DNA from: Chitinispirillaceae bacterium
Lineage (GTDB): Bacteria; Fibrobacterota; Chitinivibrionia; Chitinivibrionales; Chitinispirillaceae
Reading direction: 5' to 3'
Length of the DNA stretch: 24,672 nt
Assembly (NCBI GenBank): GCA_016930275.1
Contig: JAFGHA010000179.1
Span: 1-24,672 of the forward strand
Positions 6,128 through 18,089 of the stretch are shown here, one piece after another. Each line of letters begins with the position of its first letter. Position 1 is the first letter of the stretch. The notes under the pieces are model-generated. The model was not told the origin of the DNA, made no database searches, and saw nothing but the letters and a program-made list of their open reading frames with translations. Position numbers and translations under genes: made by a program.

Positions 6128-7972
6128 TCAACCCATTGATGCATCCTCATGCATCCGGCAGATGCACATTCTCTCCCGCTCGAGAATCGCGGGGATGTTC
6201 TGAACCGTCTGAATATCATATTCCTTTATCTCGTCCGGTAACTCCTCCCAATCCACCAGATAAGGACTGATTCTTTTTTCAACATTTTTCTCATTCCCCT
6301 TTTTCCACCCGAAGAGAAACCGCTCCGCGTTCCACCGGCGGTGTTCCATACGGGCAAGCAGCTCGATTTGCTCAGGAGTAAATACCGTCACCCGATCATC
6401 CTTCCCGCATTCATCCGTATCTACAGTATCATACCCGCATGCCCGAAGTTTGACCGGCAGGTGATCGGCCTGCTGCCGGTTCGAATCGCGCAGCGAGGAA
6501 TCGAGTTCCTCCCAGGAACACAGGGAAGGAGACTGAGGATCTCCCCCCTCGAAAATCCGCCTTTGCCGGTAGTCCTCATGAATCGCCCGTGCCGTGTGGT
6601 CAAGTTCCCAGCATTCGAATATTGCAGGCGTGCAGGTTTTGTCGATTCTGCCGAATCCGTGAATATTCAAAAGTTCCTCCCCTGCCTCTTCACTGCGCTG
6701 GAGCAGTACCCCCAGCCCGGAATTGTCATCCAGCCTGATGTACAGGGGGACATCACATTCACCGGTCAGACTCCGGAGCCGCAGCGCGCAGTTGACCGAT
6801 GCCATCGGATCGTTCATGCAGAAGACGACATAAGGAAGCGTATCCGGCAGTGCCATCTGTTCAGCCACGAAGTCACTGAATTCCCGTGTGTTGAAATCCA
6901 TATCTTTAAAGGAAATAGCACTGCACGACGCCAGCGCAGGAAGCACCTGCAGCAGCAACCCGCCTTTCTGAACGGCATCACGGTCGACTACCGTTACCTT
7001 CATCTTTTTCATATTGGCGAAATGGCCAAGCTTCACCGCCTGTAAAATAACGCTCTCCCCCATCGCCCCGAACCCCGCCACAATGCAGTGTATGATCGTG
7101 GGATCATCCGGCGCAATCGGTTTACGGTCAAGCGGAAACTCCCGGAAAAGCATGCGGGCGGCAAGATCGTTGACCCGCACTATCCGGGTGGTACTGTTTT
7201 TTGAAGAGTTTCTGAAAAAACCGCTGCTGGTGCTGATATCGGAAAGCAGCAGGTTGTTCACCGCCAGGTAACAGTTGACACGTCTCCCCGTGGTTTTTTT
7301 CCGGCAGCCGATCAGTCCGTTCACTTTCTCGCCGATTTCAATATTGCTGCCGTCGTCGCCGCTGATCGCATACACCAGCGCCGCTTTGGTGATATTCACT
7401 TTACGCAGCACCATCTCTTCGGCGGCGTCGCCAATGACAACGGGCACTCCCAGTTCCCGGCAGGTTGCGATAAGGTCATTCTCCGCATCGACCTCCACCG
7501 CCACCACCTTTCTGCCGAGGGCACGGTACCCCCGCGCGAGTTCGAGCCCCCGTACTCCCAGACCGCAGATGACCACATGGTCCCGATACAGAGGAAGACG
7601 GAAAAACCGGTGCAGGAGTGCGGCAAATGTTTTAAAAGCAGCATACCCGAAGGTCAGCGGTGCAAGCAACCGTGCGATCGCAAGAATGAGTGGCACCCGA
7701 CTTCCGGTCTCCAGATTCGATTCGAGTACAAAGAGCTGCGCAGTGAGCAGCAGTATTTCCAGAACACTTTGCGGCTGCAGTTTATGCGCGTCCCGCAGCA
7801 CGAAGTAAAACCCTGCTGCACCGAGTACGGCTGCGGTTGCGGCAAGCAGGATAAACACCCGGATCTCATTCTCCCGCCACCAGCTACGCAGTGCATTGGT
7901 ACGGTACACAGGAGCAAGTTCAGTACCAGACCTGAAATATGACGATTGACATGATTTTCTGTTTTTATTCAT
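6128..7972 (-). CDS. channel-like membrane protein: 2 TM helices with a re-entrant-like segment, two TrkA-N/RCK Rossmann domains, and a C-terminal RyR-like domain
   Basis: TM helices are IRVFILLAATAAVLGAAGFYFVL and PLILAIARLLAPLTFGYAAFKTFAALL, with SVLEILLLTAQLFVLESNLE between them and no TVGYG-type filter. Two GxGxxG Rossmann starts are present: VVICGLGVRGLELA...VVAVEVD and CIVAGFGAMGESV...VTVVDRD. The C-terminus ARAIHEDYRQ...WEELD... and LARMEHRRWNAERFLFGWKKG...ISPYLVDWEELPDEIKEYD fits the RyR-domain consensus (EH.RW...GW..G...HP.L.P...L...K..D). GGAG lies 10 nt upstream of the ATG. Confidence 0.8.
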   Translation of the reverse strand: MNKNRKSCQSSYFRSGTELAPVYRTNALRSWWRENEIRVFILLAATAAVLGAAGFYFVLRDAHKLQPQSVLEILLLTAQLFVLESNLETGSRVPLILAIARLLAPLTFGYAAFKTFAALLHRFFRLPLYRDHVVICGLGVRGLELARGYRALGRKVVAVEVDAENDLIATCRELGVPVVIGDAAEEMVLRKVNITKAALVYAISGDDGSNIEIGEKVNGLIGCRKKTTGRRVNCYLAVNNLLLSDISTSSGFFRNSSKNSTTRIVRVNDLAARMLFREFPLDRKPIAPDDPTIIHCIVAGFGAMGESVILQAVKLGHFANMKKMKVTVVDRDAVQKGGLLLQVLPALASCSAISFKDMDFNTREFSDFVAEQMALPDTLPYVVFCMNDPMASVNCALRLRSLTGECDVPLYIRLDDNSGLGVLLQRSEEAGEELLNIHGFGRIDKTCTPAIFECWELDHTARAIHEDYRQRRIFEGGDPQSPSLCSWEELDSSLRDSNRQQADHLPVKLRACGYDTVDTDECGKDDRVTVFTPEQIELLARMEHRRWNAERFLFGWKKGNEKNVEKRISPYLVDWEELPDEIKEYDIQTVQNIPAILERERMCICRMHEDASMG

Positions 7973-8282: not shown

Positions 8283-8744
8283 ATGCAGTCAATCTTCGTT
8301 CTCTTTGCCTTCTGTATTCTGCTGGGTTCTTCGACTGGGAGTACCATAGTTACACAGGAAACCGTCCCGGTCGCGTCGGCCACTTCCCCTACCGGTACCT
8401 TCAAACTGATAACCGTCAACCGTGACTCATCCGTTACGGAAACCGGAACAGACTTTTCCACGGTAGTGAGTAACGATACGGTACCGGTACTCATTCATTT
8501 TTCCGCCGAATGGGCCGCGCCCTGCAAGACAATGCATCCGGTCCTGGTTGAAACGGCGAAAAAGTTCAGTAAACGGGCATTTGTCGGTACAGTGGATATC
8601 GAGGAGTCACCGGAAGTAGGAGCGTATTATATGATCCGCTCGGTTCCGACGTTTGTGGTTCTTGTGAAAGGACGGGAGGTCGCCCGTTCCGTCGGCATGA
8701 TGACCCAGAAGAAGCTTGCCGGTCTGGTTGAGATCAAACGGTAG
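8283..8744 (+). CDS. secreted thioredoxin-fold protein with a degenerate monothiol active site (WAAPC)
   Basis: The signal peptide MQSIFVLFAFCILLGSS is followed by a Thr/Ser/Val-rich linker. The Trx core is VLIHFSAEWAAPCKTMHPVL...VDIEESPEVGAYYMIRSVPTFVVLVKG. The canonical WCGPC is replaced by WAAPC, so the first Cys is lost and the second is kept. Confidence 0.8.
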   Translation: MQSIFVLFAFCILLGSSTGSTIVTQETVPVASATSPTGTFKLITVNRDSSVTETGTDFSTVVSNDTVPVLIHFSAEWAAPCKTMHPVLVETAKKFSKRAFVGTVDIEESPEVGAYYMIRSVPTFVVLVKGREVARSVGMMTQKKLAGLVEIKR

Positions 8745-8754
8745 AACGGTGGAT

Positions 8755-11700
8755 TCATTGTTTCTGTTTGCCGGTACGGCAAAACTCCTGGTACCGTTTA
8801 ACGGCTGCAGTGTGCTCTGATTCGGGAACATACTTGCTCTCAATCTTAGCACCAATTATCCCCTCAGGTAGATCAAAGGTTAAGAGTGTTTCACCCCGCA
8901 GGAGTACCCATGTTTTCGTGGTCGACCTGCATCGATCCATTTCTCCGAAAAACAACGTCAAGGCACCGGTATCAGCAATAGTCCAGTTTCCATAGCGCAG
9001 GAAAATATCCCCGGGCTGCATTCCAAGCGAATCGGCAATGGTGTTCGGAAAAACCTGAAAGATTTTCATGGTGACCACCACTTGTTTCCCGTTAATATCG
9101 TAAAATGTTTCGGATGTAATCTTTCCGCTGTCATCGTATGCCTTGTCCCACCTGGTATATCCACCCCTGGTTCGAACCGGTTTCCCATCAAGTCCGAGGA
9201 AAAGACTGGTGGTTACATTTCCACTCTGATCATACGTATCCCTGCATTTGGCATATCCTTCAGCCAATAAAAATGGAGCACCTTCCGAATTAAAAAATTC
9301 TCTCAGCTTGACATGATCAACAGTATCATGGGTAACGATCATTTTTGCATAACCGAAATTACTTATTACCGGTTTACCCTCGGTACCGAACGTCTCATAG
9401 GAGCATAGCTCTCCCCGCGCGTTGTAACTGAAGGCCGTACGGGCGTATCCATCCTTGTTTAAAACCGGCTTTCCATCGATGCCGAAGAAGGCTTCCGACG
9501 TTGTATTACTTTGGTTATCATATGTTAATTTAGTCGAAGCATAACCTCCAACAGCAACCGGTTTCCCGTCTAAACCAAAGGTAGTAACTTCCGTACGTTT
9601 CCCCTGCCGGTTGTATTTTGCAGTCCATCTCGTATAACCGTCCTTCTGCAGGACAGGCAGTCCTTTTTCATCGAAATAACTCACCTCAGTTCTATTTCCA
9701 TGCTCATCGTTTTTCATCCGCACCTTGTGGTATCCATCAGCCCAGAGCAATGGTCGTTTTTCTGAATCGAAAAGTGATATCTCTTTTAAAAAACCGTTCT
9801 CATCATAGTCGTAACACTGCCATGTGTTTATTGAAAAATCATAAGCGGACGTCTTTCTTACATTGACATCATAACCTTCTTTAACTAATGTATCTCCCTT
9901 TTCATCATATTGATAAATAGACTTTGCGATACCTGTACTTTTTACACCCACCGCACCGCCGTCAACATCAAGAAATTCCACAGTGACCTTGTTACCGTAA
10001 GCATCAAAAGTTTGTTTCATCCTGGCAAAACCTTCATTACACCGTTGCAATTCTCCGTCGGTACCAAACATTTCAATCTCTGTGCAGTTATTATAAATAT
10101 CATGGTGATATATGTATTTTGAAATCCCGAGTTCGTTAACCACCGGCTGTCCTTTTATACCGAAGGCCTCTTCTTCAATCATATTGCCACGATCATCATA
10201 TCGTCTGACAATTTTTGCCGATCTTTTACTGTTTTGTACGGGAAGACTATCCGCTCCAAAAAATTCACTGACAACCGGGTTGCCACGCTCATCCCGGGAT
10301 ACAACGGCACGCGAATACCCGTCAGGAATCATTACAGGCTGTCCAACCGAATCGAAATATGCGACCGAAATGATATCTCCACTTTCATTATAATCCAATT
10401 CCAGTTTCGAGTAGCCCGTTTTTTTATTTGTCACAGGTTTTCCTGCGATCCCGAAATATTCAGTCTGCAGACAATTTCCCTGGTCATCGCAGATATACCG
10501 TTCACTTGCCACACCTTGTTCATTCAACGCCGGTTTATCATCCGCATCAAGATACACCACTTCTATAATATTCCCTCGTTCATCATAGGTGTAAATCCGT
10601 GTTGCATACCCAACCCCCTTCCTGCCCGGATTCTCATTCGCATCAAAATACCGTTCCTCCTCCACAACATTGAATTTATCATGGTATTTCAACTCCAGTT
10701 TCGCATACCCGTCTTTGCCGACAACATAATTCCCATTCGCATCAAAACATTCAATTTGAACCCTGTTATTTCTTTCATCATATCTATAGGCAAAACTTGA
10801 ACATCCATCTTTGCTCATTGCAGGTTTTCCATCAATGCCATAATAGGAACCCGATATCTGTAATCCCCGGCTATTGTTTACTAAAACAATTTTTGAGTAA
10901 CCGCCCATATACAACGCAGGGTTCCCGACCGTATCACGATACTCTTCAGAGGTAACATTTCCCATCTGATCATAGGTCCACACCCTTTTATGATAGCCGT
11001 ATTTGTCCATTACAGGGCTGCCATTATCCCCCAGAAACGCCTGGGATACCTTGTTCCCATTCCGGTCATATTCATACACTTGCTTTGAATATCCCTCGTT
11101 CAGAATCGCGGGCCGGCAATCCAATCCAAAACACGATACTGATGTACTATTCCCGTAAGAATCATAGGTAAACCTTATCTCCGCACATCCGGCTCTAAAA
11201 ATAAAAGGCTCACCATCCGGCCCGATGTATTCCTGACTAACTCCTTCACCATCCTTGTTCCATACCTGTTTTGTTCCCATTAAACCATTTTTAAGTGCCG
11301 CCGGTTCTCCCTTCGAATTCAGATATAAAATCCATATTACTGTCTCTGCATCTTCCAATCTGGTCATCTCGCCGAAACTGCCAGTCGCATCACAGACATT
11401 ATTTCCGAGATAATCACGATAGCGACGTACTATAGTTCGACCATTAACGTCCAGAACCAGCAGGTGCTGACTGACTTTCGATTTTCGTTGAATATTGGTG
11501 AACCCGGCATCCGCATTAAATTCCACTCCTCCCTGATGAGCTGTTGTGTGGTCAAGGCTCTTAAGATCGATATAAATCGAATCCGGCCTGGCGTTACTGT
11601 CGGACAGACCGTAACCATAGTTCCACACCATAACAACTTTCCCCAGCCAATCTTTCTGCACGATCCGCTCCACTTTCCCGTCCTGCCGGTAGTCGATGCT

Positions 11701-12588
11701 CAGCTCCGCCACCCCTAATAACCCCCCCTCCAGATCCATCAGCTGGCCTTTACTGTTGACATACCCCGCTCGGACCACCTTCCCCCCGCGCTCTTCCAGC
11801 CGCCAGGTGCGATAGCGGTGGGAATGAAATTTCCGGGATACCCACCCCACCCCTTCGGGTGCGCCCCACCGCCAGGTAATGTTGCGGTAATACCGTACCT
11901 TGACACGGGTGTAATCCCACCAGGCCAAATATCCTCCCGCGATAAGCAGCACGACCGCCCCAATCGCGCCGATCTGCAACCGCAGCCGCCGCATACGACG
12001 CTGATGCTCCCGCCGTCGCAGTTCATCATAGGAACAACCGAGCACATGCGCCAGGATTCTCAGAAGCGCATTTGATTTGAGCGTTTTCAGCGGTTCAGAC
12101 GCACGCAGCCGCACATCCGCAAAGAGCGGTTCGGCATCCTCGTCTCCTTCAACGGCTGTTCCGTCTTCCCGCTGCACCACTTTTTTCAGTTCACGCAAAG
12201 CCTGCGGAAACGATTCTTCCGGAGTGCCTTCAATAAGCAACGGAATAATGCAATGCCCGCGCCCCATTTCCCTGAACTGCGCCACCTCCTGGTTTACCCA
12301 GCGCGATTTCGGAGTCGACCGTGAACAGATCACCACCAGGAATTTCGATGCGGCAAGAGCGTTTTTTATGTCATCCTTGAGGTCTGCCGAGGTTGGCAGT
12401 TCGTCCTCGTCGCGGAATACTCTCTTGAGCTTTGCGGGAATACCCTTTTTCACCAGTGCCGCAGGCGTCCGGAACGTTTCCAGCGCATGTATCAGCCACT
12501 GTGCATACTCGCGGTCGGCATCAAGATGCCGGTAGCTTATGAAAACGTCATATTCGAACACACTGCCTTTGTCGAGTTCTTCAGACAC
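8755..12588 (-). CDS. N-terminal TIR domain, single TM helix, long extracytoplasmic 32-aa repeat array and a C-terminal PDZ-like domain (1277 aa)
   Basis: GTG start with AGGAGA 7 nt upstream. The TIR region is YDVFISYRHLDAD...FLVVICSRSTPKSRWVNQEVAQF...IIPLLIEG, with the candidate catalytic Glu at aa 101. The TM helix LQIGAIGAVVLLIAGGYLAWW covers about aa 204-224. At least 22 repeat units follow. The PDZ-like end is SLGMQPGDIFLRYGNWTI...WVLLRGETLLTFDLP (about nt 8836-9075). Confidence 0.9.
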   Translation of the reverse strand: MSEELDKGSVFEYDVFISYRHLDADREYAQWLIHALETFRTPAALVKKGIPAKLKRVFRDEDELPTSADLKDDIKNALAASKFLVVICSRSTPKSRWVNQEVAQFREMGRGHCIIPLLIEGTPEESFPQALRELKKVVQREDGTAVEGDEDAEPLFADVRLRASEPLKTLKSNALLRILAHVLGCSYDELRRREHQRRMRRLRLQIGAIGAVVLLIAGGYLAWWDYTRVKVRYYRNITWRWGAPEGVGWVSRKFHSHRYRTWRLEERGGKVVRAGYVNSKGQLMDLEGGLLGVAELSIDYRQDGKVERIVQKDWLGKVVMVWNYGYGLSDSNARPDSIYIDLKSLDHTTAHQGGVEFNADAGFTNIQRKSKVSQHLLVLDVNGRTIVRRYRDYLGNNVCDATGSFGEMTRLEDAETVIWILYLNSKGEPAALKNGLMGTKQVWNKDGEGVSQEYIGPDGEPFIFRAGCAEIRFTYDSYGNSTSVSCFGLDCRPAILNEGYSKQVYEYDRNGNKVSQAFLGDNGSPVMDKYGYHKRVWTYDQMGNVTSEEYRDTVGNPALYMGGYSKIVLVNNSRGLQISGSYYGIDGKPAMSKDGCSSFAYRYDERNNRVQIECFDANGNYVVGKDGYAKLELKYHDKFNVVEEERYFDANENPGRKGVGYATRIYTYDERGNIIEVVYLDADDKPALNEQGVASERYICDDQGNCLQTEYFGIAGKPVTNKKTGYSKLELDYNESGDIISVAYFDSVGQPVMIPDGYSRAVVSRDERGNPVVSEFFGADSLPVQNSKRSAKIVRRYDDRGNMIEEEAFGIKGQPVVNELGISKYIYHHDIYNNCTEIEMFGTDGELQRCNEGFARMKQTFDAYGNKVTVEFLDVDGGAVGVKSTGIAKSIYQYDEKGDTLVKEGYDVNVRKTSAYDFSINTWQCYDYDENGFLKEISLFDSEKRPLLWADGYHKVRMKNDEHGNRTEVSYFDEKGLPVLQKDGYTRWTAKYNRQGKRTEVTTFGLDGKPVAVGGYASTKLTYDNQSNTTSEAFFGIDGKPVLNKDGYARTAFSYNARGELCSYETFGTEGKPVISNFGYAKMIVTHDTVDHVKLREFFNSEGAPFLLAEGYAKCRDTYDQSGNVTTSLFLGLDGKPVRTRGGYTRWDKAYDDSGKITSETFYDINGKQVVVTMKIFQVFPNTIADSLGMQPGDIFLRYGNWTIADTGALTLFFGEMDRCRSTTKTWVLLRGETLLTFDLPEGIIGAKIESKYVPESEHTAAVKRYQEFCRTGKQKQ
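9076..11190 (-). repeat. coding tandem repeat: at least 22 consecutive 31-34-aa units, consensus G-Y-[AS]-K-x5-Y-D-x2-G-N-x6-[YF]-F-G-x-D-G-K-P-V-x4
   Basis: Read from the translation at aa 467-1171. Examples are GYSKQVYEYDRNGNKVSQAFLGDNGSPVMDKY, GYSKLELDYNESGDIISVAYFDSVGQPVMIPD, GYASTKLTYDNQSNTTSEAFFGIDGKPVLNKD and GYAKCRDTYDQSGNVTTSLFLGLDGKPVRTRG. More degenerate copies extend upstream to about nt 11800. The units are diverged at the DNA level, so this is not a slippage-type repeat. Confidence 0.75.
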
Positions 12589-12692: not shown

Positions 12693-14543
12693 TCACCATG
12701 CGAAAATTCCCCCGGCGACAAGGAACAATACGGCACCAATTACCGCGGCTAATTGCCACAAACGCCGTATGCGACGCTGCCGTTCCCGCTGTCGAAGTTC
12801 GTCGAACGAGCAGCCCAGCACTTGCGCAACAATACGTAAGAGCGCCATAGACCTAAGTTTCTTCACCGATTCTCCTGACCGCGGCCGCACATCGGCAAAA
12901 AGCGGTTCAACATCCTCGTCACTTTCAACAAATGTTCCATCCTCGCGATTCACTACTTTTTTCAGTGCACGCAGGGCCGGCGGAAACGATTCTTCCGGCG
13001 AACCTTCAATGAGTAGTGGGATAATATGGTGCCCACGTCCCATCTCCCTGAACTGCACGACCTCCTGGTTTACCCAGCGTGATTGCGGTGTTGCGGGGGA
13101 GCAGATAACCACCAGAAAATTCGAGGCGGAAAGTGCTCGTGTTATATCATCTTTAAGATTCGCGGAGGTTGGCAGTTCATCTTCATCCCGGAAAACCTTT
13201 GTCAATCGTGACTTAGTTCCTTTTTTGACCAGTGGCAGAGGAGTGCGGAACATTTCGAGCGCATTGACTAACCACAGAGCATATTCACGGTCGGCATCAA
13301 CATGCCGGTAACTGATAAATGCATCATACTCATACCCGTTTTCAATACCGGCATTTTCCGGTACAATCATTATTCGTATACTATTGTAAAGTTCACTGTA
13401 TAGTCGTATAGCTAAGGCTGGGATTCGAAATTTGTTCATTGCCCTATTGTCGAGCACACGCAGATATACTCCAGCTACCAGCCAGCAGGAAACAGTCCAG
13501 TACCCGCCATACCCCGCGAATGGCATAGGAATAAAGGGTACCAGCCGCACCACCCCCGTTGATCTGGTTATATGTGCAATTGCTAAAAAAATAAGAATAA
13601 ATAACAGTACCCGGGCGACTTCTCGACTGTTTTCATCGCGTATTTTTCGACATCCTGCCCACATTACATATGCCAGTACTGCATAAACTCCACACAGTAT
13701 CGCCACTCCGATGCCACCGAACTCATACCATAACATTTGCAGCGTGGAATGAGCCGCCAGTAGTTCATACCTGACAGTATTCTTATTCAAACACTGTTGA
13801 CCGTTACGGTCCTTTGTATCCGATTGCACCCACGACTTGTAGCAGTTGCGACTGTCATGCAACCGGGCCGCCGCACGAACCTGATGAGCAGACGCTTTAT
13901 CGTATACTACCTCGTTATAGTCCGGATTGAACTTCACCAGCAGTAATATCGCCACAACACCACACACCACCGGCACAAGTGCAAGGGTGATTTTTATACC
14001 GGGCATACGCGAGACCAGCACCATATACAAAACCGTTGCATTGAAAAGCAGCAGCATCGCCGTGTCCGGCTGCAGTAACAGAAGCCCGTTGACGGCAACG
14101 GTCAACCCCGCGACTGCACCCGGATATTTCCAACCGTCCTTTTTACGGCAATCAGTGAAAATCAGATGCACCAGCAGCGGCAGAAGAAGGAGCAATGCCA
14201 AAGTTCCGGAATGCAGCGGGAAAGGCCCAAACCAAACAATCTGGGGCTCTCCAGAGCAAAAAGGACCCCATTGACCGCATTGGGCTTGGGCTGTAAGGAG
14301 GAGAACTCCCGCAGCTGCAGCAAGGTGATACCTGCTTCCACGCCAATTAACTCTGACCAGCACAAGCGATGTCGCAAGAACAATTCCGAAACAGTTTCTG
14401 CTCAGGAATCGCATGAAATATTCGATATCGAATCCTGCGAACGACCAGAATTGCCGGGTAAGATACCCGCCGATTATCGTCAGGGCCAGCATCAAACCAA
14501 CAATCAGGACTGCTGTGCCGATATTCCGTTCGGTTGTTCTCAT
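12693..14543 (-). CDS. polytopic FtsW/RodA/SpoVE (SEDS)-like membrane domain fused to a TIR domain and a C-terminal TM helix (616 aa)
   Basis: ATG with GGAGA 9 nt upstream. In aa 1-365 the SEDS-like motifs occur in the right order: LLLLQPDTAMLLLF (compare QPDLGT), ELLAAHSTLQMLWYEFGGIGVAIL (compare PE.HTDFIF..i.EE.G..G) and PFIPMPFAGYGGYWTV (compare g.pLPf.SYGGS). In aa 405-585 the TIR region is YDAFISYRHVDAD...FLVVICSPATPQSRWVNQEVVQF...IIPLLIEG. The terminal TM helix is LAAVIGAVLFLVAGGIFAW. Confidence 0.8.
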   Translation of the reverse strand: MRTTERNIGTAVLIVGLMLALTIIGGYLTRQFWSFAGFDIEYFMRFLSRNCFGIVLATSLVLVRVNWRGSRYHLAAAAGVLLLTAQAQCGQWGPFCSGEPQIVWFGPFPLHSGTLALLLLLPLLVHLIFTDCRKKDGWKYPGAVAGLTVAVNGLLLLQPDTAMLLLFNATVLYMVLVSRMPGIKITLALVPVVCGVVAILLLVKFNPDYNEVVYDKASAHQVRAAARLHDSRNCYKSWVQSDTKDRNGQQCLNKNTVRYELLAAHSTLQMLWYEFGGIGVAILCGVYAVLAYVMWAGCRKIRDENSREVARVLLFILIFLAIAHITRSTGVVRLVPFIPMPFAGYGGYWTVSCWLVAGVYLRVLDNRAMNKFRIPALAIRLYSELYNSIRIMIVPENAGIENGYEYDAFISYRHVDADREYALWLVNALEMFRTPLPLVKKGTKSRLTKVFRDEDELPTSANLKDDITRALSASNFLVVICSPATPQSRWVNQEVVQFREMGRGHHIIPLLIEGSPEESFPPALRALKKVVNREDGTFVESDEDVEPLFADVRPRSGESVKKLRSMALLRIVAQVLGCSFDELRQRERQRRIRRLWQLAAVIGAVLFLVAGGIFAW

Positions 14544-14595: not shown

Positions 14596-17295
14596 TCATC
14601 TCTTCAGGTAAATCCCCAGCCCCGCGGCCTTCGCCAGTGCAGGAAGATCGCGGAATGGAGCCCGGTCCTTCTCCCGTTCCCCATCGAGTCGCGGATCGTT
14701 CCAGGGCAGAATACAGGGATGTTTTCGTGCAGGTTCGTCACGTACCGGACCGTACCGCCATCCCTCCATCAGCCGTTCGACATTCCAGCGGCCATGTTCC
14801 TCTTCGGCAAGAACCTCTATTCCCTCGTTGCCGATTGCCGCTTCGAGATCTTTCACCGGTTCTCCGTTTCCCTGACCCTGCGGAAGCAGTTCGAGCCCGT
14901 ACAATTCGAGCAGTCGCTTCATCTGAAATGCCTGATGTAAATTTGCCCTTTTGAAGGTTTCATCGAGTTCGTCCCATTGCGGCAGAGGGGCGCGGCGCGT
15001 TCCGGCGATGTATTTCTCGTGAAGCAGCCGCGCGAACGGTTCCACCTCACCGCGAACCGGTGAAATCACTCCGAGGTTTCCCGGAATCATCCGGCAGAAA
15101 TTCCGTATGGTCGCCTGATCATGCGGCAGTGAAAAGCAGCGTTTCCTGACGGTCGCCGACCATCGCGAAGCCTCCCCGGTGATCTCATCGGCACTGCGGC
15201 CGCTGCCCGCTATAATACCGACGGTTGCCCCGAGGGCGGCCGCAAGACGGTACTCAAAGAGCGATATCGGACCGCCGCCCGCTCCGAGCACCCGGACATC
15301 TTCCGGACGTACACCGGCTGAAAGCAGATCGATCCAGTTCTGCACCGGTTGAGCGAAGGTAAACCTTTTGGAACGCGGCACCGTGATCTGTTCATATGCC
15401 GGATGTTCGGCATCGTCATCCACATGACGCGACTCTGGCCGATACGCCTTCAACTGCGGCGACGCTCCGTTGCGCCGGGATGCGGCGATCGCATCGCCGA
15501 CGATTTTCGCGACGCCGACATCGGTGCCGCCGCAGTACACCGTTCCGTTGAATCCGTCAAGTGCGGAAGTTATCGCCCCCGAAAAGGCATCGAGTGTCTC
15601 CTGTTTGTCGCGGTCGCAGGTCCCGGCGACGATCAGTACCGGTCGTGTCGGATCGATTGACGTGTCAAGCGGAGTGAGAACGGAATCGCCACCGGTTTCC
15701 GGTGGTTCACCACCGGCCTCGACCACGACCATACCGATCGCAAGCACCTGCAGAAGCAGTTTGAGCTGCCGTGCGAAATCGGTGTCGAGCGATTTCACCG
15801 CGTCGTAGAGTTCCTGCAGGAGTTCCCGCTCTTCCGCCACCTGGCGGAAATCGGTACTTGACGCGATCCCCATGGTACAGCAGCGAAGACTTTCCGGCAG
15901 ATCACCCGCCAGAGCAAGGAGACGCGCACTGGTGAAATGGGCGAACGGCAGTTCAATCCCCGCCGTCGCATGCTCTTGGCAGCTTGCGACCGCCCCGGCG
16001 ATTGCCGACTGCATCGCGATCGCGGCAGACCGTGAACTCCTGCCGAGACAGAGCATGTGAACATAATGCCCGAACAGATAGGGATTTTCCGGAGCGAGCA
16101 GATGGGCCTGGAAATAGTAATTGCGGGCCGCCACAATACGTCTATGTGATGCAGTGTCGATCAGTTCACAACGGCCGCATTCGGCCATTGCCAGTGCCCT
16201 GACCGCCTTTTCCCGGTCGTCATCCTCAATATCCGCTTTCAATCGATGCACTATCGTGCAGAACTGCTGATCTTCGGTCAATGCATCGATATCGACGACA
16301 ACCGGCCGGGCAAGCGCGATAAGATCATCAAAACCCGCTCTGAATTCAGCCGATTTCCGTTCATGCACATACAATCGGCAGCGCGCCTCGGCAACGATAT
16401 ACCGCAACTCGTTTCGGAACGGCCCCCGCGCGGTTGCAATCCAGGGCGCACATTCCAGTACGTGTTTCCAGTCACGGAGACGACGATACAGCTTGCCGAG
16501 ACGCAGCGCGATCGGAGCCGTTTCTTCACCGAGGTTCTGTGCAAGAAGCAGCCTGAGCCGTCCGACCTCGGCCTCCATTTCTTCCTTATCAAGAAACGCG
16601 CCGTGATCGACTTCGTAGGTTTTCAACCGGTCAACCAGTGCATCGATCGAGCAGCTTGCCTCCTCGAGAACCGCCGAGAGGCGGTTCGATTCACGCACCA
16701 GTACCGCGGGAATTTCCGCTCCGCCCTTGTACAGCAGATCGTGCAGTGCATCCGCCCATACATGTTGAAGATCCGTACGGATCTGAATCTCCGCTTTACG
16801 CTGCAGCCTCGTTCCATCCGAAGCAGCCTTCCGTACCTCCTTGATCGCTTCGGCAATCGACGACGGTATCTCGATCCCGGCCAGTGCCATTCTCTGTTCG
16901 AAATCGGCGGGCAGGAGCACATCAAGATGCACCGAGCCGTACCCGAACCGCTCTACTCCGGCAACCGCAAGTTTATCCTCGCTCTTCTTCACATCGAGGA
17001 ACCGGCCGATCAACCGGTTGGCTTCTCTGACTTCCATCCCGGTATGAACGATAAGTCTGCCGCCGCACAGGTCGCCGAACTCGTGCACCGGATCGGTATA
17101 TCCCGTCTTGCGCAGAATTTTTTCCGCAAAACTCGCCGTTTCCTTGGTACGGACCGCAACCGTACCGAGCGGAGCCGTCCGGTCGCGTACCGCGGCGAGC
17201 AGCCAGGACAATATCTCTCCGAACGATTTGTAAATCGGCCGTTCATACGAAGTGAATTCCGTGATCTGTTGTTCGATAGTGACGGTACCGTCCAT
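14596..17295 (-). CDS. RelA/SpoT-family nucleotidyltransferase, helical linker, SLOG/LSDAT domain and RyR-like domain fusion (899 aa)
   Basis: The RelA_SpoT motifs lie in aa 55-190: FAEKILRK, GDLCGGRLIV, FGYGSVHLDV and AEIQIRTDLQHVWADALHDLLYK. The SLOG/LOG-like motifs lie in aa 550-705: VLIVAGT, YCGGTDVGVAKIVGD, LGAGGGPISLFEYRLA and IIAGSGRSADEI. The RyR-like region lies in aa 752-895: FARLLHEKY...WDELDE and LAEEEHGRWNVERLMEGWRYGP...KHPCILPWNDP...EREKDR. Confidence 0.9.
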   Translation of the reverse strand: MDGTVTIEQQITEFTSYERPIYKSFGEILSWLLAAVRDRTAPLGTVAVRTKETASFAEKILRKTGYTDPVHEFGDLCGGRLIVHTGMEVREANRLIGRFLDVKKSEDKLAVAGVERFGYGSVHLDVLLPADFEQRMALAGIEIPSSIAEAIKEVRKAASDGTRLQRKAEIQIRTDLQHVWADALHDLLYKGGAEIPAVLVRESNRLSAVLEEASCSIDALVDRLKTYEVDHGAFLDKEEMEAEVGRLRLLLAQNLGEETAPIALRLGKLYRRLRDWKHVLECAPWIATARGPFRNELRYIVAEARCRLYVHERKSAEFRAGFDDLIALARPVVVDIDALTEDQQFCTIVHRLKADIEDDDREKAVRALAMAECGRCELIDTASHRRIVAARNYYFQAHLLAPENPYLFGHYVHMLCLGRSSRSAAIAMQSAIAGAVASCQEHATAGIELPFAHFTSARLLALAGDLPESLRCCTMGIASSTDFRQVAEERELLQELYDAVKSLDTDFARQLKLLLQVLAIGMVVVEAGGEPPETGGDSVLTPLDTSIDPTRPVLIVAGTCDRDKQETLDAFSGAITSALDGFNGTVYCGGTDVGVAKIVGDAIAASRRNGASPQLKAYRPESRHVDDDAEHPAYEQITVPRSKRFTFAQPVQNWIDLLSAGVRPEDVRVLGAGGGPISLFEYRLAAALGATVGIIAGSGRSADEITGEASRWSATVRKRCFSLPHDQATIRNFCRMIPGNLGVISPVRGEVEPFARLLHEKYIAGTRRAPLPQWDELDETFKRANLHQAFQMKRLLELYGLELLPQGQGNGEPVKDLEAAIGNEGIEVLAEEEHGRWNVERLMEGWRYGPVRDEPARKHPCILPWNDPRLDGEREKDRAPFRDLPALAKAAGLGIYLKR

Positions 17296-17504: not shown

Positions 17505-18089
17505 TTACACCTCTCCGAATAACTGTTCCACCAGATGCTGCAACTGCCCCACCAGTGGTTCGCACCGAAGCCCCGTAGACCGTTTTCCGAACAGACGTAC
17601 CAGTTCCCGGTAATACCACCGGGCTCCATCCTTTCCACCGTTGAAACGCTCCCAGACCATATCACCGGCAATCGCGACATCTGCAGCGATATCACTGAGG
17701 TTACAGAATTTATCCGCCGCGGCAACGGCGAGAGCTTGCTCATCAACGGTCATCAGCCGGGTAATGGTCCGCTGCTTTTTTCCCCGCCACCCGTCATCCT
17801 GATCATGAAAGGTCACCTGCTCAACAATACCGGTAATTCCCTCACCGAACTCTCCCGCCAGTTCACTGCGGGTCACGGTGGTATCCTCCAGTACATCATG
17901 CAGTATACCGGCCGTTACCACCGGATCGTCACACCCGAGCCGTACCAGTGTGCGGGCGACGTCGAGCGGATGACAGAGGTACGGTATGCGGGTGCATTTC
18001 CGGAATTGCCCCGCATGCGCCCGGGCTGCGAAAACCGTAGCTTTGAAAACAAACGTTCCCTCAACGGAATTGTTTCGCCAATTCTCCAC
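17505..18089 (-). CDS. stand-alone HD-domain (p)ppGpp-hydrolase-like protein (small alarmone hydrolase / SpoT-Mesh1 HD_4 type)
   Basis: GTG start with GAAAGG upstream. ARAHAGQFRKCTRIPYLCHPLDVA...AGILHDVLEDTTVT...EFGEGITGIVEQVT matches the H..Q.R / PY..HP..VA / LHD..EDT / FG..v...V..vT signature of SpoT-type hydrolase domains. The later AAADKFCNL corresponds to the ADRL.N helix. Confidence 0.85.
   Translation of the reverse strand: MENWRNNSVEGTFVFKATVFAARAHAGQFRKCTRIPYLCHPLDVARTLVRLGCDDPVVTAGILHDVLEDTTVTRSELAGEFGEGITGIVEQVTFHDQDDGWRGKKQRTITRLMTVDEQALAVAAADKFCNLSDIAADVAIAGDMVWERFNGGKDGARWYYRELVRLFGKRSTGLRCEPLVGQLQHLVEQLFGEV

Follow-up and report, generated by a model that had tools for sequence, protein, structure and literature searches.

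Type X Thoeris pairs the TIR protein ThsB with the ion-channel effector ThsK and defends Bacillus through a signal that is so far undescribed (Yirmiya et al., bioRxiv 10.64898/2025.12.03.692087). It is the closest described system to the one reported here, which lies in a stretch of 24,672 nucleotides from a Chitinispirillaceae bacterium of the Fibrobacterota (GenBank assembly GCA_016930275.1, contig JAFGHA010000179.1), referred to below in its full length as the window. A minus-strand open reading frame (ORF) in the window encodes what we call the target protein, which consists of a TIR domain, one transmembrane (TM) helix, about 950 amino acids (aa) of diverged YD-type beta-hairpins and a terminal PDZ domain. 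To our knowledge, the characterized bacterial TIR immune sensors all detect infection from inside the cell. What appears to be new is a putative form of TIR-based signalling, by a membrane TIR of receptor type that has, in part of its family, channel-like partners carrying an RyR (ryanodine receptor) domain. The target protein and its parts are as follows (evidence in brackets; AlphaFold2, AF2; hidden Markov model, HMM):

8755-12588, minus strand: target ORF, 1277 aa, GTG start
12166-12552, minus strand: TIR domain (aa 13-141), predicted to be cytoplasmic (Pfam, PDB sequence matches)
11980-12165, minus strand: conserved helical linker (aa 142-203) with motif LRILAHVLGCSYDELRRRE and basic end RRREHQRRMRRLR (N-termini of relatives)
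11917-11979, minus strand: single TM helix (aa 204-224), predicted N-in/C-out (hydrophobicity, family charge bias)
11374-11916, minus strand: juxtamembrane ectodomain (aa 225-405) with motif WWDYTRVKVRYY...RWGAPEGVG, modelled as five irregular beta-hairpins (AF2, relatives)
9073-11373, minus strand: about 24 regular 32-aa YD-type hairpin units (aa 406-1172) (HMM, AF2, TIGR01643, Foldseek)
8758-9072, minus strand: divergent PDZ domain (aa 1173-1277) of HtrA/RseP type (family tail profile, phmmer, AF2)

The GTG start of the ORF is preceded, 7 nt upstream, by AGGAG, and the identical deposited protein is titled 'MAG: TIR domain-containing protein [Chitinispirillaceae bacterium]'. The region beyond the TM helix, made up of the hairpin repeats and the PDZ domain, amounts to ~1,050 residues. 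An earlier note on this DNA, made from the sequence by itself, had described a TIR domain at the N-terminus (aa 12-125), a basic stretch directly before the TM helix, at least 22 regular 32-aa units and a PDZ-like module at the C-terminus. All four were recovered here: the Pfam model TIR_2 covers aa 15-137, the basic stretch RRREHQRRMRRLR occupies aa 191-203 immediately ahead of the helix at aa 204-224, the regular units number 23 by our own HMM and 24 in the AlphaFold2 model, and a profile of the family tails matches the PDZ domains of DegP, DegQ and RseP at ~E=1e-18.

The TIR domain was recognized by the Pfam models TIR_2 (E=1.5e-13, 51.8 bits, cutoff 28), ThsB_TIR (E=1.3e-9, 38.8 bits, cutoff 21.2) and TIR (E=2.8e-5, 24.4 bits, cutoff 21.3). 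Its best sequence matches in the PDB are the plant TIRs L6 and L7 of flax, and in the alignment the target stretch SRWVNQEV (WVNQEV from aa 97) is paired with SKWCLMEL of L6/L7, which sets E101 opposite their Glu, a column that is near-invariant in a 20-sequence family alignment. We take the Glu of the L6 TIR that is matched by E101 to be the catalytic residue. The presence of an enzyme-type Glu, together with the closeness to plant TIRs, suggests that the target TIR is enzymatic rather than an adaptor scaffold, and we infer that it cleaves NAD+. The first ~225 aa (TIR, linker and TM helix) are a mobile module, ~50% identical to the N-termini of >100 clusters of proteins that continue not into YD repeats but into WD40, TPR, PQQ or PDZ-S41 regions.

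The regular units of the ectodomain follow the consensus xxxGYAKxxxxYDxxGNxxxxExFGxxGxPVx. An HMM that we built from 12 seed units identified 23 units across aa 444-1171, with a period of 32-33 aa. Six units that were not in the seed were detected at E=1e-6 to 6e-14, and the same model gave no match at E<=1e-5 in 200 shuffled ectodomains. There are no tandem DNA repeats in the repeat-coding region, only short, chance-like direct repeats, and the units are therefore likely to be old and diverged; recent expansion at the DNA level, or cassette switching, was ruled out on this ground. An AlphaFold2 model of aa 226-1277, computed with the 20-sequence family alignment, has a mean pLDDT (predicted local distance difference test) of 81.9 and a pTM (predicted template modelling score) of 0.59. 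It consists of an uninterrupted run of 29 beta-hairpins followed by a small C-terminal alpha/beta module. The run comprises five irregular hairpins (aa ~230-405) and 24 regular 32-aa hairpins (aa ~406-1163), with pLDDT mostly >85 in the hairpins and a low-confidence break within the regular ones at aa ~894-923. The juxtamembrane strands were modelled at ectodomain residues 5-166, and the juxtamembrane motif is common to relatives with TIR-type and with kinase-type N-termini.

In order to place the repeat among known folds, the model and the unit profile were compared with the PDB and with family models. The top Foldseek matches in the PDB were Rhs effectors of the type VI secretion system (T6SS) (7q97, E=1e-30), Tse5, RhsP, teneurins and the BC component of Tc toxins. 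The matches to these YD-shell proteins had a probability of 1.0, yet TM-scores of only 0.12-0.39 and root-mean-square deviations of ~23-36 A, which in terms of the model would mean that the local hairpin is YD-like but that the whole does not superpose on a closed cocoon. The NCBIfam model TIGR01643 (YD_repeat_2x) scored 23.6 bits in total (cutoff 15.8), with no single stretch passing alone, and Pfam RHS_repeat scored 14.7 bits on the target, below its cutoff of 22. The unit profile gave weak matches in the PDB to Rhs and teneurin sequences only, through the YxYDxxGN half, whereas the other half, F-G-x-D-G-K-P-V, and the period of 32 aa are specific to the target family. Based on these comparisons, the repeat is probably a diverged YD/Rhs-type hairpin, in agreement with the earlier note, which had called it YD-like without being a canonical YD repeat. 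The note had also raised a known family with a non-receptor role as a possible match; the superfamily that is matched, YD/Rhs, includes receptor and adhesion uses in teneurins as well as toxin containers.

The likeness of the target to Rhs proteins, Tc toxin BC and teneurins is in the YxYDxxGN core of the local hairpin. These proteins gave the top Foldseek matches and the sole sequence matches in the PDB, and teneurins also carry extracellular YD repeats on a type II membrane protein. The differences are the 32-aa period, the family-specific F-G-x-D-G-K-P-V half, a TM-score of the model to the closed cocoon of <=0.39, and the lack in the target of an Rhs core, an aspartyl autoprotease motif and an encapsulated toxin. 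The Rhs-core motif DPxG[LWIVF] was not found anywhere in the target protein, nor was any toxin domain, the C-terminus being the PDZ domain.

When scanned alone, the C-terminal tail of the target had no Pfam match. Its assignment as a PDZ domain comes from the family: in phmmer the target tail was connected with those of 44 among 150 representatives of the family, at E values as low as 2e-10, the profile that matched DegP, DegQ and RseP was built from 23 family tails, and 20 of those 23 matched Pfam PDZ_6. In the AlphaFold2 model the tail forms a beta/alpha module with a pLDDT of 60-80.

A search of 1.84 billion representative sequences with the ectodomain by itself identified 4,583 relatives (clusters), 1,354 of them at E<=1e-30. 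Among the top 150, exactly one TM helix was predicted in 98, and the single TM helix lies a median of 238 aa ahead of the first strong repeat. The N-terminal regions of the same 150 are diverse: 82 are Ser/Thr kinases (Pkinase, Hanks-type), some with an nSTAND1 NTPase, ~42 are TIRs of more than one subtype, six are AAA_35 ATPases, a few are polytopic domains and five have a signal anchor only. Hanks kinases are accordingly the majority form of the ectodomain family, and in this the family resembles receptor Ser/Thr kinases such as the PASTA kinases PknB and PrkC, which likewise have a cytoplasmic output connected through one TM helix to sensor repeats on the extracytoplasmic side; unlike them, the target has a TIR rather than a kinase as its output, and its sensor repeats are unrelated to PASTA. 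A Ser/Thr kinase-TM-YD protein of ~1270 aa (the P0019 family) is found in many gut Bacteroidales genera with 65-78% identity in the kinase domain (loci L009, L013, L015-L031 and others, in Phocaeicola, Bacteroides, Prevotellaceae and Muribaculaceae). From its distribution it looks like a core receptor kinase, for which no description was found. The number of HMM-detected units among TIR relatives ranges from 3 to 20.

The orientation of the protein in the membrane was assessed from hydrophobicity, flanking charge and domain content. The segment aa 204-224 is the sole strongly hydrophobic one (Kyte-Doolittle maximum 1.99, compared with <=1.2 for other 19-residue windows). In 93 single-TM relatives, the 15 residues on the N-side of the helix contain on average 5.8 Lys and Arg, versus 2.0 on the C-side, and the N side was the richer in 97% of these proteins. 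Nucleotide-dependent enzymes belong in the cytoplasm. Given that the kinases and NTPases of the family are cytoplasmic, and that a single helix intervenes between them and the repeats, the repeats are therefore placed outside. The PDZ profile is nearest to the PDZ domains of periplasmic proteases (DegP, DegQ, RseP), and there is a sister architecture, P0033, that runs TIR-TM-...-PDZ-peptidase S41. In a paralogue encoded upstream of the target, a TIR module follows a SEDS-like domain; SEDS proteins have 10 TM helices and a cytoplasmic C-terminus, which favours a TIR inside the cell. Taken together, these four independent lines (charge bias, domain fusions, PDZ type and paralogue) strongly indicate a cytoplasmic TIR and a periplasmic location of both the repeats and the PDZ domain, with the target as a type II single-pass inner-membrane protein. 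The inverted topology, with the TIR outside, was rejected in view of the positive-inside bias and of the fusions to kinases and NTPases.

These results uphold the placement of the TIR in the cytoplasm and of the repeats outside in the earlier note, which had gone on to regard the protein as the logical equivalent of an animal Toll-like receptor (TLR). That equivalence holds for the layout, in that animal Toll-like and IL-1 receptors also cross the membrane once, between extensive repeats on the outer side and a TIR on the inner side, and activation by clustering would be a further common feature. It does not hold for ectodomain homology: the target has YD hairpins and a PDZ domain instead of leucine-rich repeats (LRRs) or Ig domains, and no LRR match was found with Pfam. 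The order of domains is inverted, as the note had said, with an N-terminal TIR in a type II protein as opposed to the C-terminal TIR of the type I TLRs, and the target TIR, unlike those of the animal receptors, has an enzyme-type Glu and is nearest to plant TIRs. The resemblance is best viewed as convergent or modular and not as orthology.

The second part of our argument concerns a neighbouring gene whose product we refer to as the RCK-RyR protein:

6128-7972, minus strand: TM1, pore-like helix, TM2, two RCK (TrkA_N) domains and a C-terminal RyR domain, 614 aa (Pfam, AF2, Foldseek)

In the AlphaFold2 model of the RCK-RyR protein (pLDDT 86.5, pTM 0.80), the RCK domains have a Rossmann fold and the RyR domain is helical. 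In Foldseek the best matches of the model were GsuK channel structures with ADP or NAD bound (E=5e-11), followed by TrkA, MthK and Slo1, and its C-terminus matches the ADP-bound structure of human RyR3 Repeat12. GsuK, a multi-ligand K+ channel gated by NAD+/ADP and Ca2+, shares with it the 2TM pore-like module and the two RCK domains; the differences are that the RCK-RyR protein has no TVGYG filter and has an extra RyR domain at its C-terminus.

To determine whether genes in the surroundings of the target are kept in relatives, one genome per species was scanned with the juxtamembrane motif WDY[NT][RT][LV][KH][VTI]xY, which yielded 45 loci. These comprised 26 kinase-type loci (mostly gut Bacteroidales), 17 TIR-type loci (Brachyspira, Rhizomicrobium, Nitrosomonas, Vreelandella, Planctomycetota, Chitinophagaceae, Clostridia and Verrucomicrobia) and two with N-termini beyond the locus edge. 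The 17, the window and three other loci together make 21 distinct TIR-type loci. Neighbours were compared by tblastn of the window neighbours and by unbiased clustering of all ORFs, and across the 21 TIR-type and 26 kinase-type loci the RCK-RyR family was the sole neighbour family kept across phyla. An RCK-RyR homologue was present within 10 kb in 8 of the 21 TIR-type loci but in none of the 26 of kinase type (p=6e-4 by Fisher's test, or p=5e-3 with lineages collapsed). The eight positive loci belong to five lineages (Fibrobacterota, Bacteroidales, Brachyspira, Vreelandella and Clostridia), and the RCK-RyR gene usually adjoins the TIR gene directly, with a gap of 18 bp in L032. In the two Clostridia loci L050 (7846-9423) and L052 (7801-9378), a gene for an Ion_trans_2 channel with RyR lies directly upstream of the TIR gene, between it and the RCK-RyR partner. 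The Pfam lists around five TIR-type homologues contained nothing recurrent, and P0023, a TIR-TM-WD40 relative, has no RyR neighbour.

Comparison with type X Thoeris can now be made gene by gene. In both there is a TIR gene beside a P-loop/channel-type membrane protein, the presumed logic being that the TIR product gates the channel, and the Ion_trans_2 domain of the type X effector recurs in the Ion_trans_2 and RyR genes that flank TIR-TM-YD in the Clostridia loci. The type X TIR, however, is a small soluble protein of ~170 aa, whereas that of the target heads a membrane protein of 1277 aa. The effector in the type X locus that we retrieved, an Ion_trans_2 protein of 208 aa, has neither an RyR nor an RCK domain, while the partner in the window has two RCK domains and an RyR domain and no K+ filter. 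In addition, adjacency in the target family is limited to 8 of 21 loci, and defence by type X was established experimentally whereas the target system is known from genes alone.

The target and RCK-RyR genes belong to an island of five minus-strand genes, in the order HD_4, RelA/SpoT-SLOG-RyR, SEDS-like-TIR, target and RCK-RyR, which by domain content is a putative nucleotide-signalling island. The remaining genes of the island, and a plus-strand gene located within it, are:

17505-18089, minus strand: HD_4 protein, 194 aa, like SpoT/Mesh1-type alarmone hydrolases (Pfam HD_4, E=1.7e-17)
14596-17295, minus strand: RelA/SpoT-type pyrophosphokinase with SLOG (LSDAT_prok) and RyR domains, 899 aa (Pfam)
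12693-14543, minus strand: SEDS/RodA-like polytopic domain with TIR-linker-TM, 616 aa, upstream paralogue (Pfam, NCBIfam)
8283-8744, plus strand: thioredoxin-like protein, exported, 153 aa (Pfam Thioredoxin, E=5e-20; signal-peptide-like N-terminus)

The upstream paralogue has TIR_2 at aa 409-528, a weak Pfam match to FTSW_RODA_SPOVE and weak NCBIfam matches to rodA, ftsW and MrdB (the last at E=5e-5, aa 16-360). Its module is 73% identical to aa 11-223 of the target in both protein and DNA, and its TGA stop aligns with the codon for W224 of the target, meaning that the protein ends at the end of the TM helix with no ectodomain. From this alignment, the upstream gene is an old tandem paralogue lacking the ectodomain, and the TIR modules of the two proteins could co-assemble. 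The RelA/SpoT-SLOG-RyR protein is a candidate signal-gated effector, as suggested by its domains. Its family is small (24 clusters); in three other contexts that were examined, TIR genes were near in two and a NUDIX gene came after it in two. There are, as such, three RyR architectures that recur beside TIR genes: RCK-RyR, Ion_trans_2-RyR and RelA/SpoT-SLOG-RyR. The earlier note had not taken in these surroundings, with their tandem TIR-TM paralogue and two RyR-domain proteins.

We propose that the target is an outside-in TIR receptor whose TIR cleaves NAD+ and for which the RyR-domain neighbours are the likely receivers, a proposal to which we give an even chance of being correct. In such a system, the repeat array and the PDZ domain would bind or monitor something in the envelope, be it a feature of glycan or peptidoglycan, the exposed C-terminus of a protein, or part of a phage, and an event at the envelope would alter receptor clustering in the membrane. 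The cytoplasmic TIRs would then self-associate, perhaps joined by the SEDS-like protein through its TIR-TM module (73% identical), and the assembled TIRs would cleave NAD+, leading to NAD+ depletion and/or an ADP-ribose-derived messenger. Likely receivers would be the adenine-nucleotide-binding RCK, RyR and SLOG domains of the RCK-RyR protein and of the RelA/SpoT-SLOG-RyR protein, the latter being paired with HD_4. The result could be ion leak or membrane collapse, or a disturbance of alarmone or ATP/nucleotide pools, and growth arrest, as in abortive defence of the Thoeris type. Since many relatives are solitary, the TIR may in those cases work with no further effector. A further-reaching version, in which outside-in TIR receptors make an ADP-ribose-type product that is read by RyR domains on channels and on SLOG-RelA/SpoT proteins and so prefigures animal cyclic ADP-ribose (cADPR)/ryanodine-receptor signalling, is put forward tentatively, as we consider it doubtful.

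Several observations weigh against this proposal. Thirteen of the 21 TIR-type loci have no RCK-RyR neighbour (some of their flanks are truncated), several TIR-type loci lie amid housekeeping genes and many relatives are solitary; based on the missing neighbours and the housekeeping surroundings, the partnership between TIR and RCK-RyR is not obligatory. In the window itself the RCK-RyR gene is 782 bp from the target with the thioredoxin gene, on the opposite strand, in between, which makes co-transcription of the two unlikely. The RCK-RyR protein lacks the TVGYG K+ selectivity filter, the family consensus being YLxLQLFVLESG, and for that reason we term it channel-like only, with ion conduction as a possibility. 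The flank on the C-side of the TM helix in the target is also fairly basic (+5/-1), PADLOC gave weak TIR-level matches only for the system and none for the RCK-RyR partner, and receptor signalling, NADase activity and defence are all functions that we infer from sequence. Lastly, the ectodomain is also carried by conserved Bacteroidales kinases, and what it senses may therefore be a cue from the cell's own envelope and not phage.

This last point leads to the alternative that survives best, namely that the protein is a physiological envelope sensor with no role in immunity. Its YD/PDZ ectodomain would follow an endogenous cue of the cell wall or outer membrane, much as PASTA domains do for PknB and PrkC, and the TIR, through an NAD-derived messenger or the NAD+ level, would tune ion flux (via RCK-RyR) and alarmone synthesis. 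Ser/Thr kinases make up over half of the nearest ectodomain relatives, and the 65-78% identity of the kinase version across gut Bacteroidales genera is typical of a core gene; many TIR versions are found amid housekeeping genes. The fusion of a paralogous TIR module to a SEDS/RodA-like domain provides a link to cell-wall machinery, and the PDZ domain is one of the envelope-stress kind, as in DegS and RseP. On the other hand, the combination of TIR, SLOG, RelA/SpoT-hydrolase (toxin-antitoxin-like) and channel-like genes is typical of conflict systems, one relative is located beside CHAT and AAA+ genes, and the tandem paralogue arrays of Brachyspira fit diversifying immune receptors better. Characterized bacterial TIR enzymes are, moreover, mostly defensive. 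On balance we regard an envelope sensor of this kind as possible, at a rather low probability.

A second alternative is a membrane-tethered NADase, in which the ectodomain would serve only as an anchor or localizer, for instance by holding the protein at a site through peptidoglycan or glycans. Activation would then come from the cytoplasm, where phage proteins or nucleotide signals would act on the TIR and the linker, and outside-in signalling would play no part. Wall-associated and carbohydrate-binding proteins such as WapA and teneurins contain YD repeats, and the known bacterial TIR sensors of the Thoeris literature detect phage in the cytoplasm. The upstream paralogue, with TIR-TM and no ectodomain, indicates that the module does not depend on an outside sensor for its existence. 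We nevertheless judge this alternative to be unlikely, because a conserved ectodomain of at least 950 aa ending in a PDZ domain would be a costly anchor, because kinases and NTPases are joined to it as they are to sensor domains, and because the number of repeats varies widely among the TIR relatives. An Rhs-type polymorphic toxin or container, in which a YD cocoon would encapsulate a C-terminal domain for delivery to competitors, has in its favour the best structural matches (T6SS Rhs effectors, Tc toxins and teneurins, E to 1e-30), TIGR01643 above its cutoff and a unit profile whose weak PDB matches are only to Rhs and teneurin, but it was rejected as very improbable given the TIR and TM anchor at the N-terminus, a PDZ domain rather than a toxin at the C-terminus, the lack of a DPxGL core, TM-scores of 0.12-0.39, a period of 32 aa versus ~21 aa, and the absence of PAAR, VgrG or secretion context in the window.

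Should the outside-in receptor proposal be correct, surface or envelope sensing would be added to bacterial TIR signalling, and nothing else in bacteria would come as near to a Toll-like receptor in function as the target. The ligand of so abundant an ectodomain (4,583 clusters) would explain two large signalling families, the TIR proteins and the gut Bacteroidales kinases. The recurrent pairing of TIR and RyR offers a testable hypothesis for the role of bacterial RyR domains, with the RyR domain being, if the further-reaching version is true, a general receiver module for TIR output, and it may help to explain how cADPR and the ryanodine receptor came to be linked in evolution. No description of a TIR-TM-YD/PDZ receptor, of the ectodomain family or of the TIR-RyR association was found, within a limited coverage of the literature, nor was a publication that combines TIR, transmembrane and YD repeat. 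The architecture is absent from a TIR survey (PMC7075850), from a study of Planctomycetota kinases (PMC11032199) and from Kaur et al. 2020 (PMC7159879). A precomputed match to PF27244.1 is present on the target and three relatives (P0001, P0008, P0010 and P0017 listed), and this model may already cover part of the target protein; no mention of PF27244 was found in the searchable literature.

The RCK-RyR family is itself large (at least 133 clusters). In a reverse check of three members, two were located beside DUF4062-STAND or DUF4062-WD40 genes and one was not. In L054 (7529-15784) and in the context of P0298, RCK-RyR is flanked by large DUF4062-NACHT/AAA_16-TPR or DUF4062-WD40 proteins. The sole PDB sequence match of the DUF4062 region, which may be TIR-like, was the N-terminal domain of TEP1 (11gz). 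In L008 (8546-17696), a TIR_2 protein with an aspartyl-protease-like region is encoded 15 bp upstream of a RelA_SpoT-RyR gene, and a 1654-aa RHS/TEN_YD-shell protein is located convergently downstream. The Brachyspira loci L039, L043 and L044 (B. pulli, an uncultured species and B. innocens) contain tandem arrays of 2-3 TIR-TM-YD paralogues over 6-10 kb, and in L037, L039 and L043 the RCK-RyR gene is separated from the first TIR gene by a small ORF like sigma-70 region 2.

Other observations concern the window and individual genes. The HD_4 and RelA/SpoT-SLOG-RyR genes resemble a toxic small-alarmone-synthetase/hydrolase pair with a SLOG sensor, and in relatives NUDIX replaces HD_4. The fusion of a cell-wall-polymerase-like domain to a TIR in the upstream paralogue is unusual in itself. 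In the thioredoxin-like protein WAAPC replaces WCxxC (monothiol), and its gene, which separates the target from the channel-like gene, is not kept beside relatives, except for a chance-like match in the kinase locus L018; its membership in the system is uncertain. The earlier note had raised a pseudogene in close relatives as a concern, but the gene is intact in relatives with the exception of one split copy. This is P0005 (L005, 8001-11308), in which the gene is divided into ORFs of 924 aa and 177 aa, the latter holding the last repeats and the PDZ domain, as a result of a frameshift, a pseudogene or a sequencing error. A scan for promoters and terminators in the window was uninformative, with counts close to those in shuffled sequence. 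The GC content at 9001-11000 is 0.42-0.43, compared with 0.53-0.59 across most of the window, and the GC skew of the plus strand is strongly negative over the same interval, which coincides with the repeat-coding region. The low GC content is probably due to a composition rich in Tyr, Asp, Asn, Lys and Gly, with foreign origin as the alternative.

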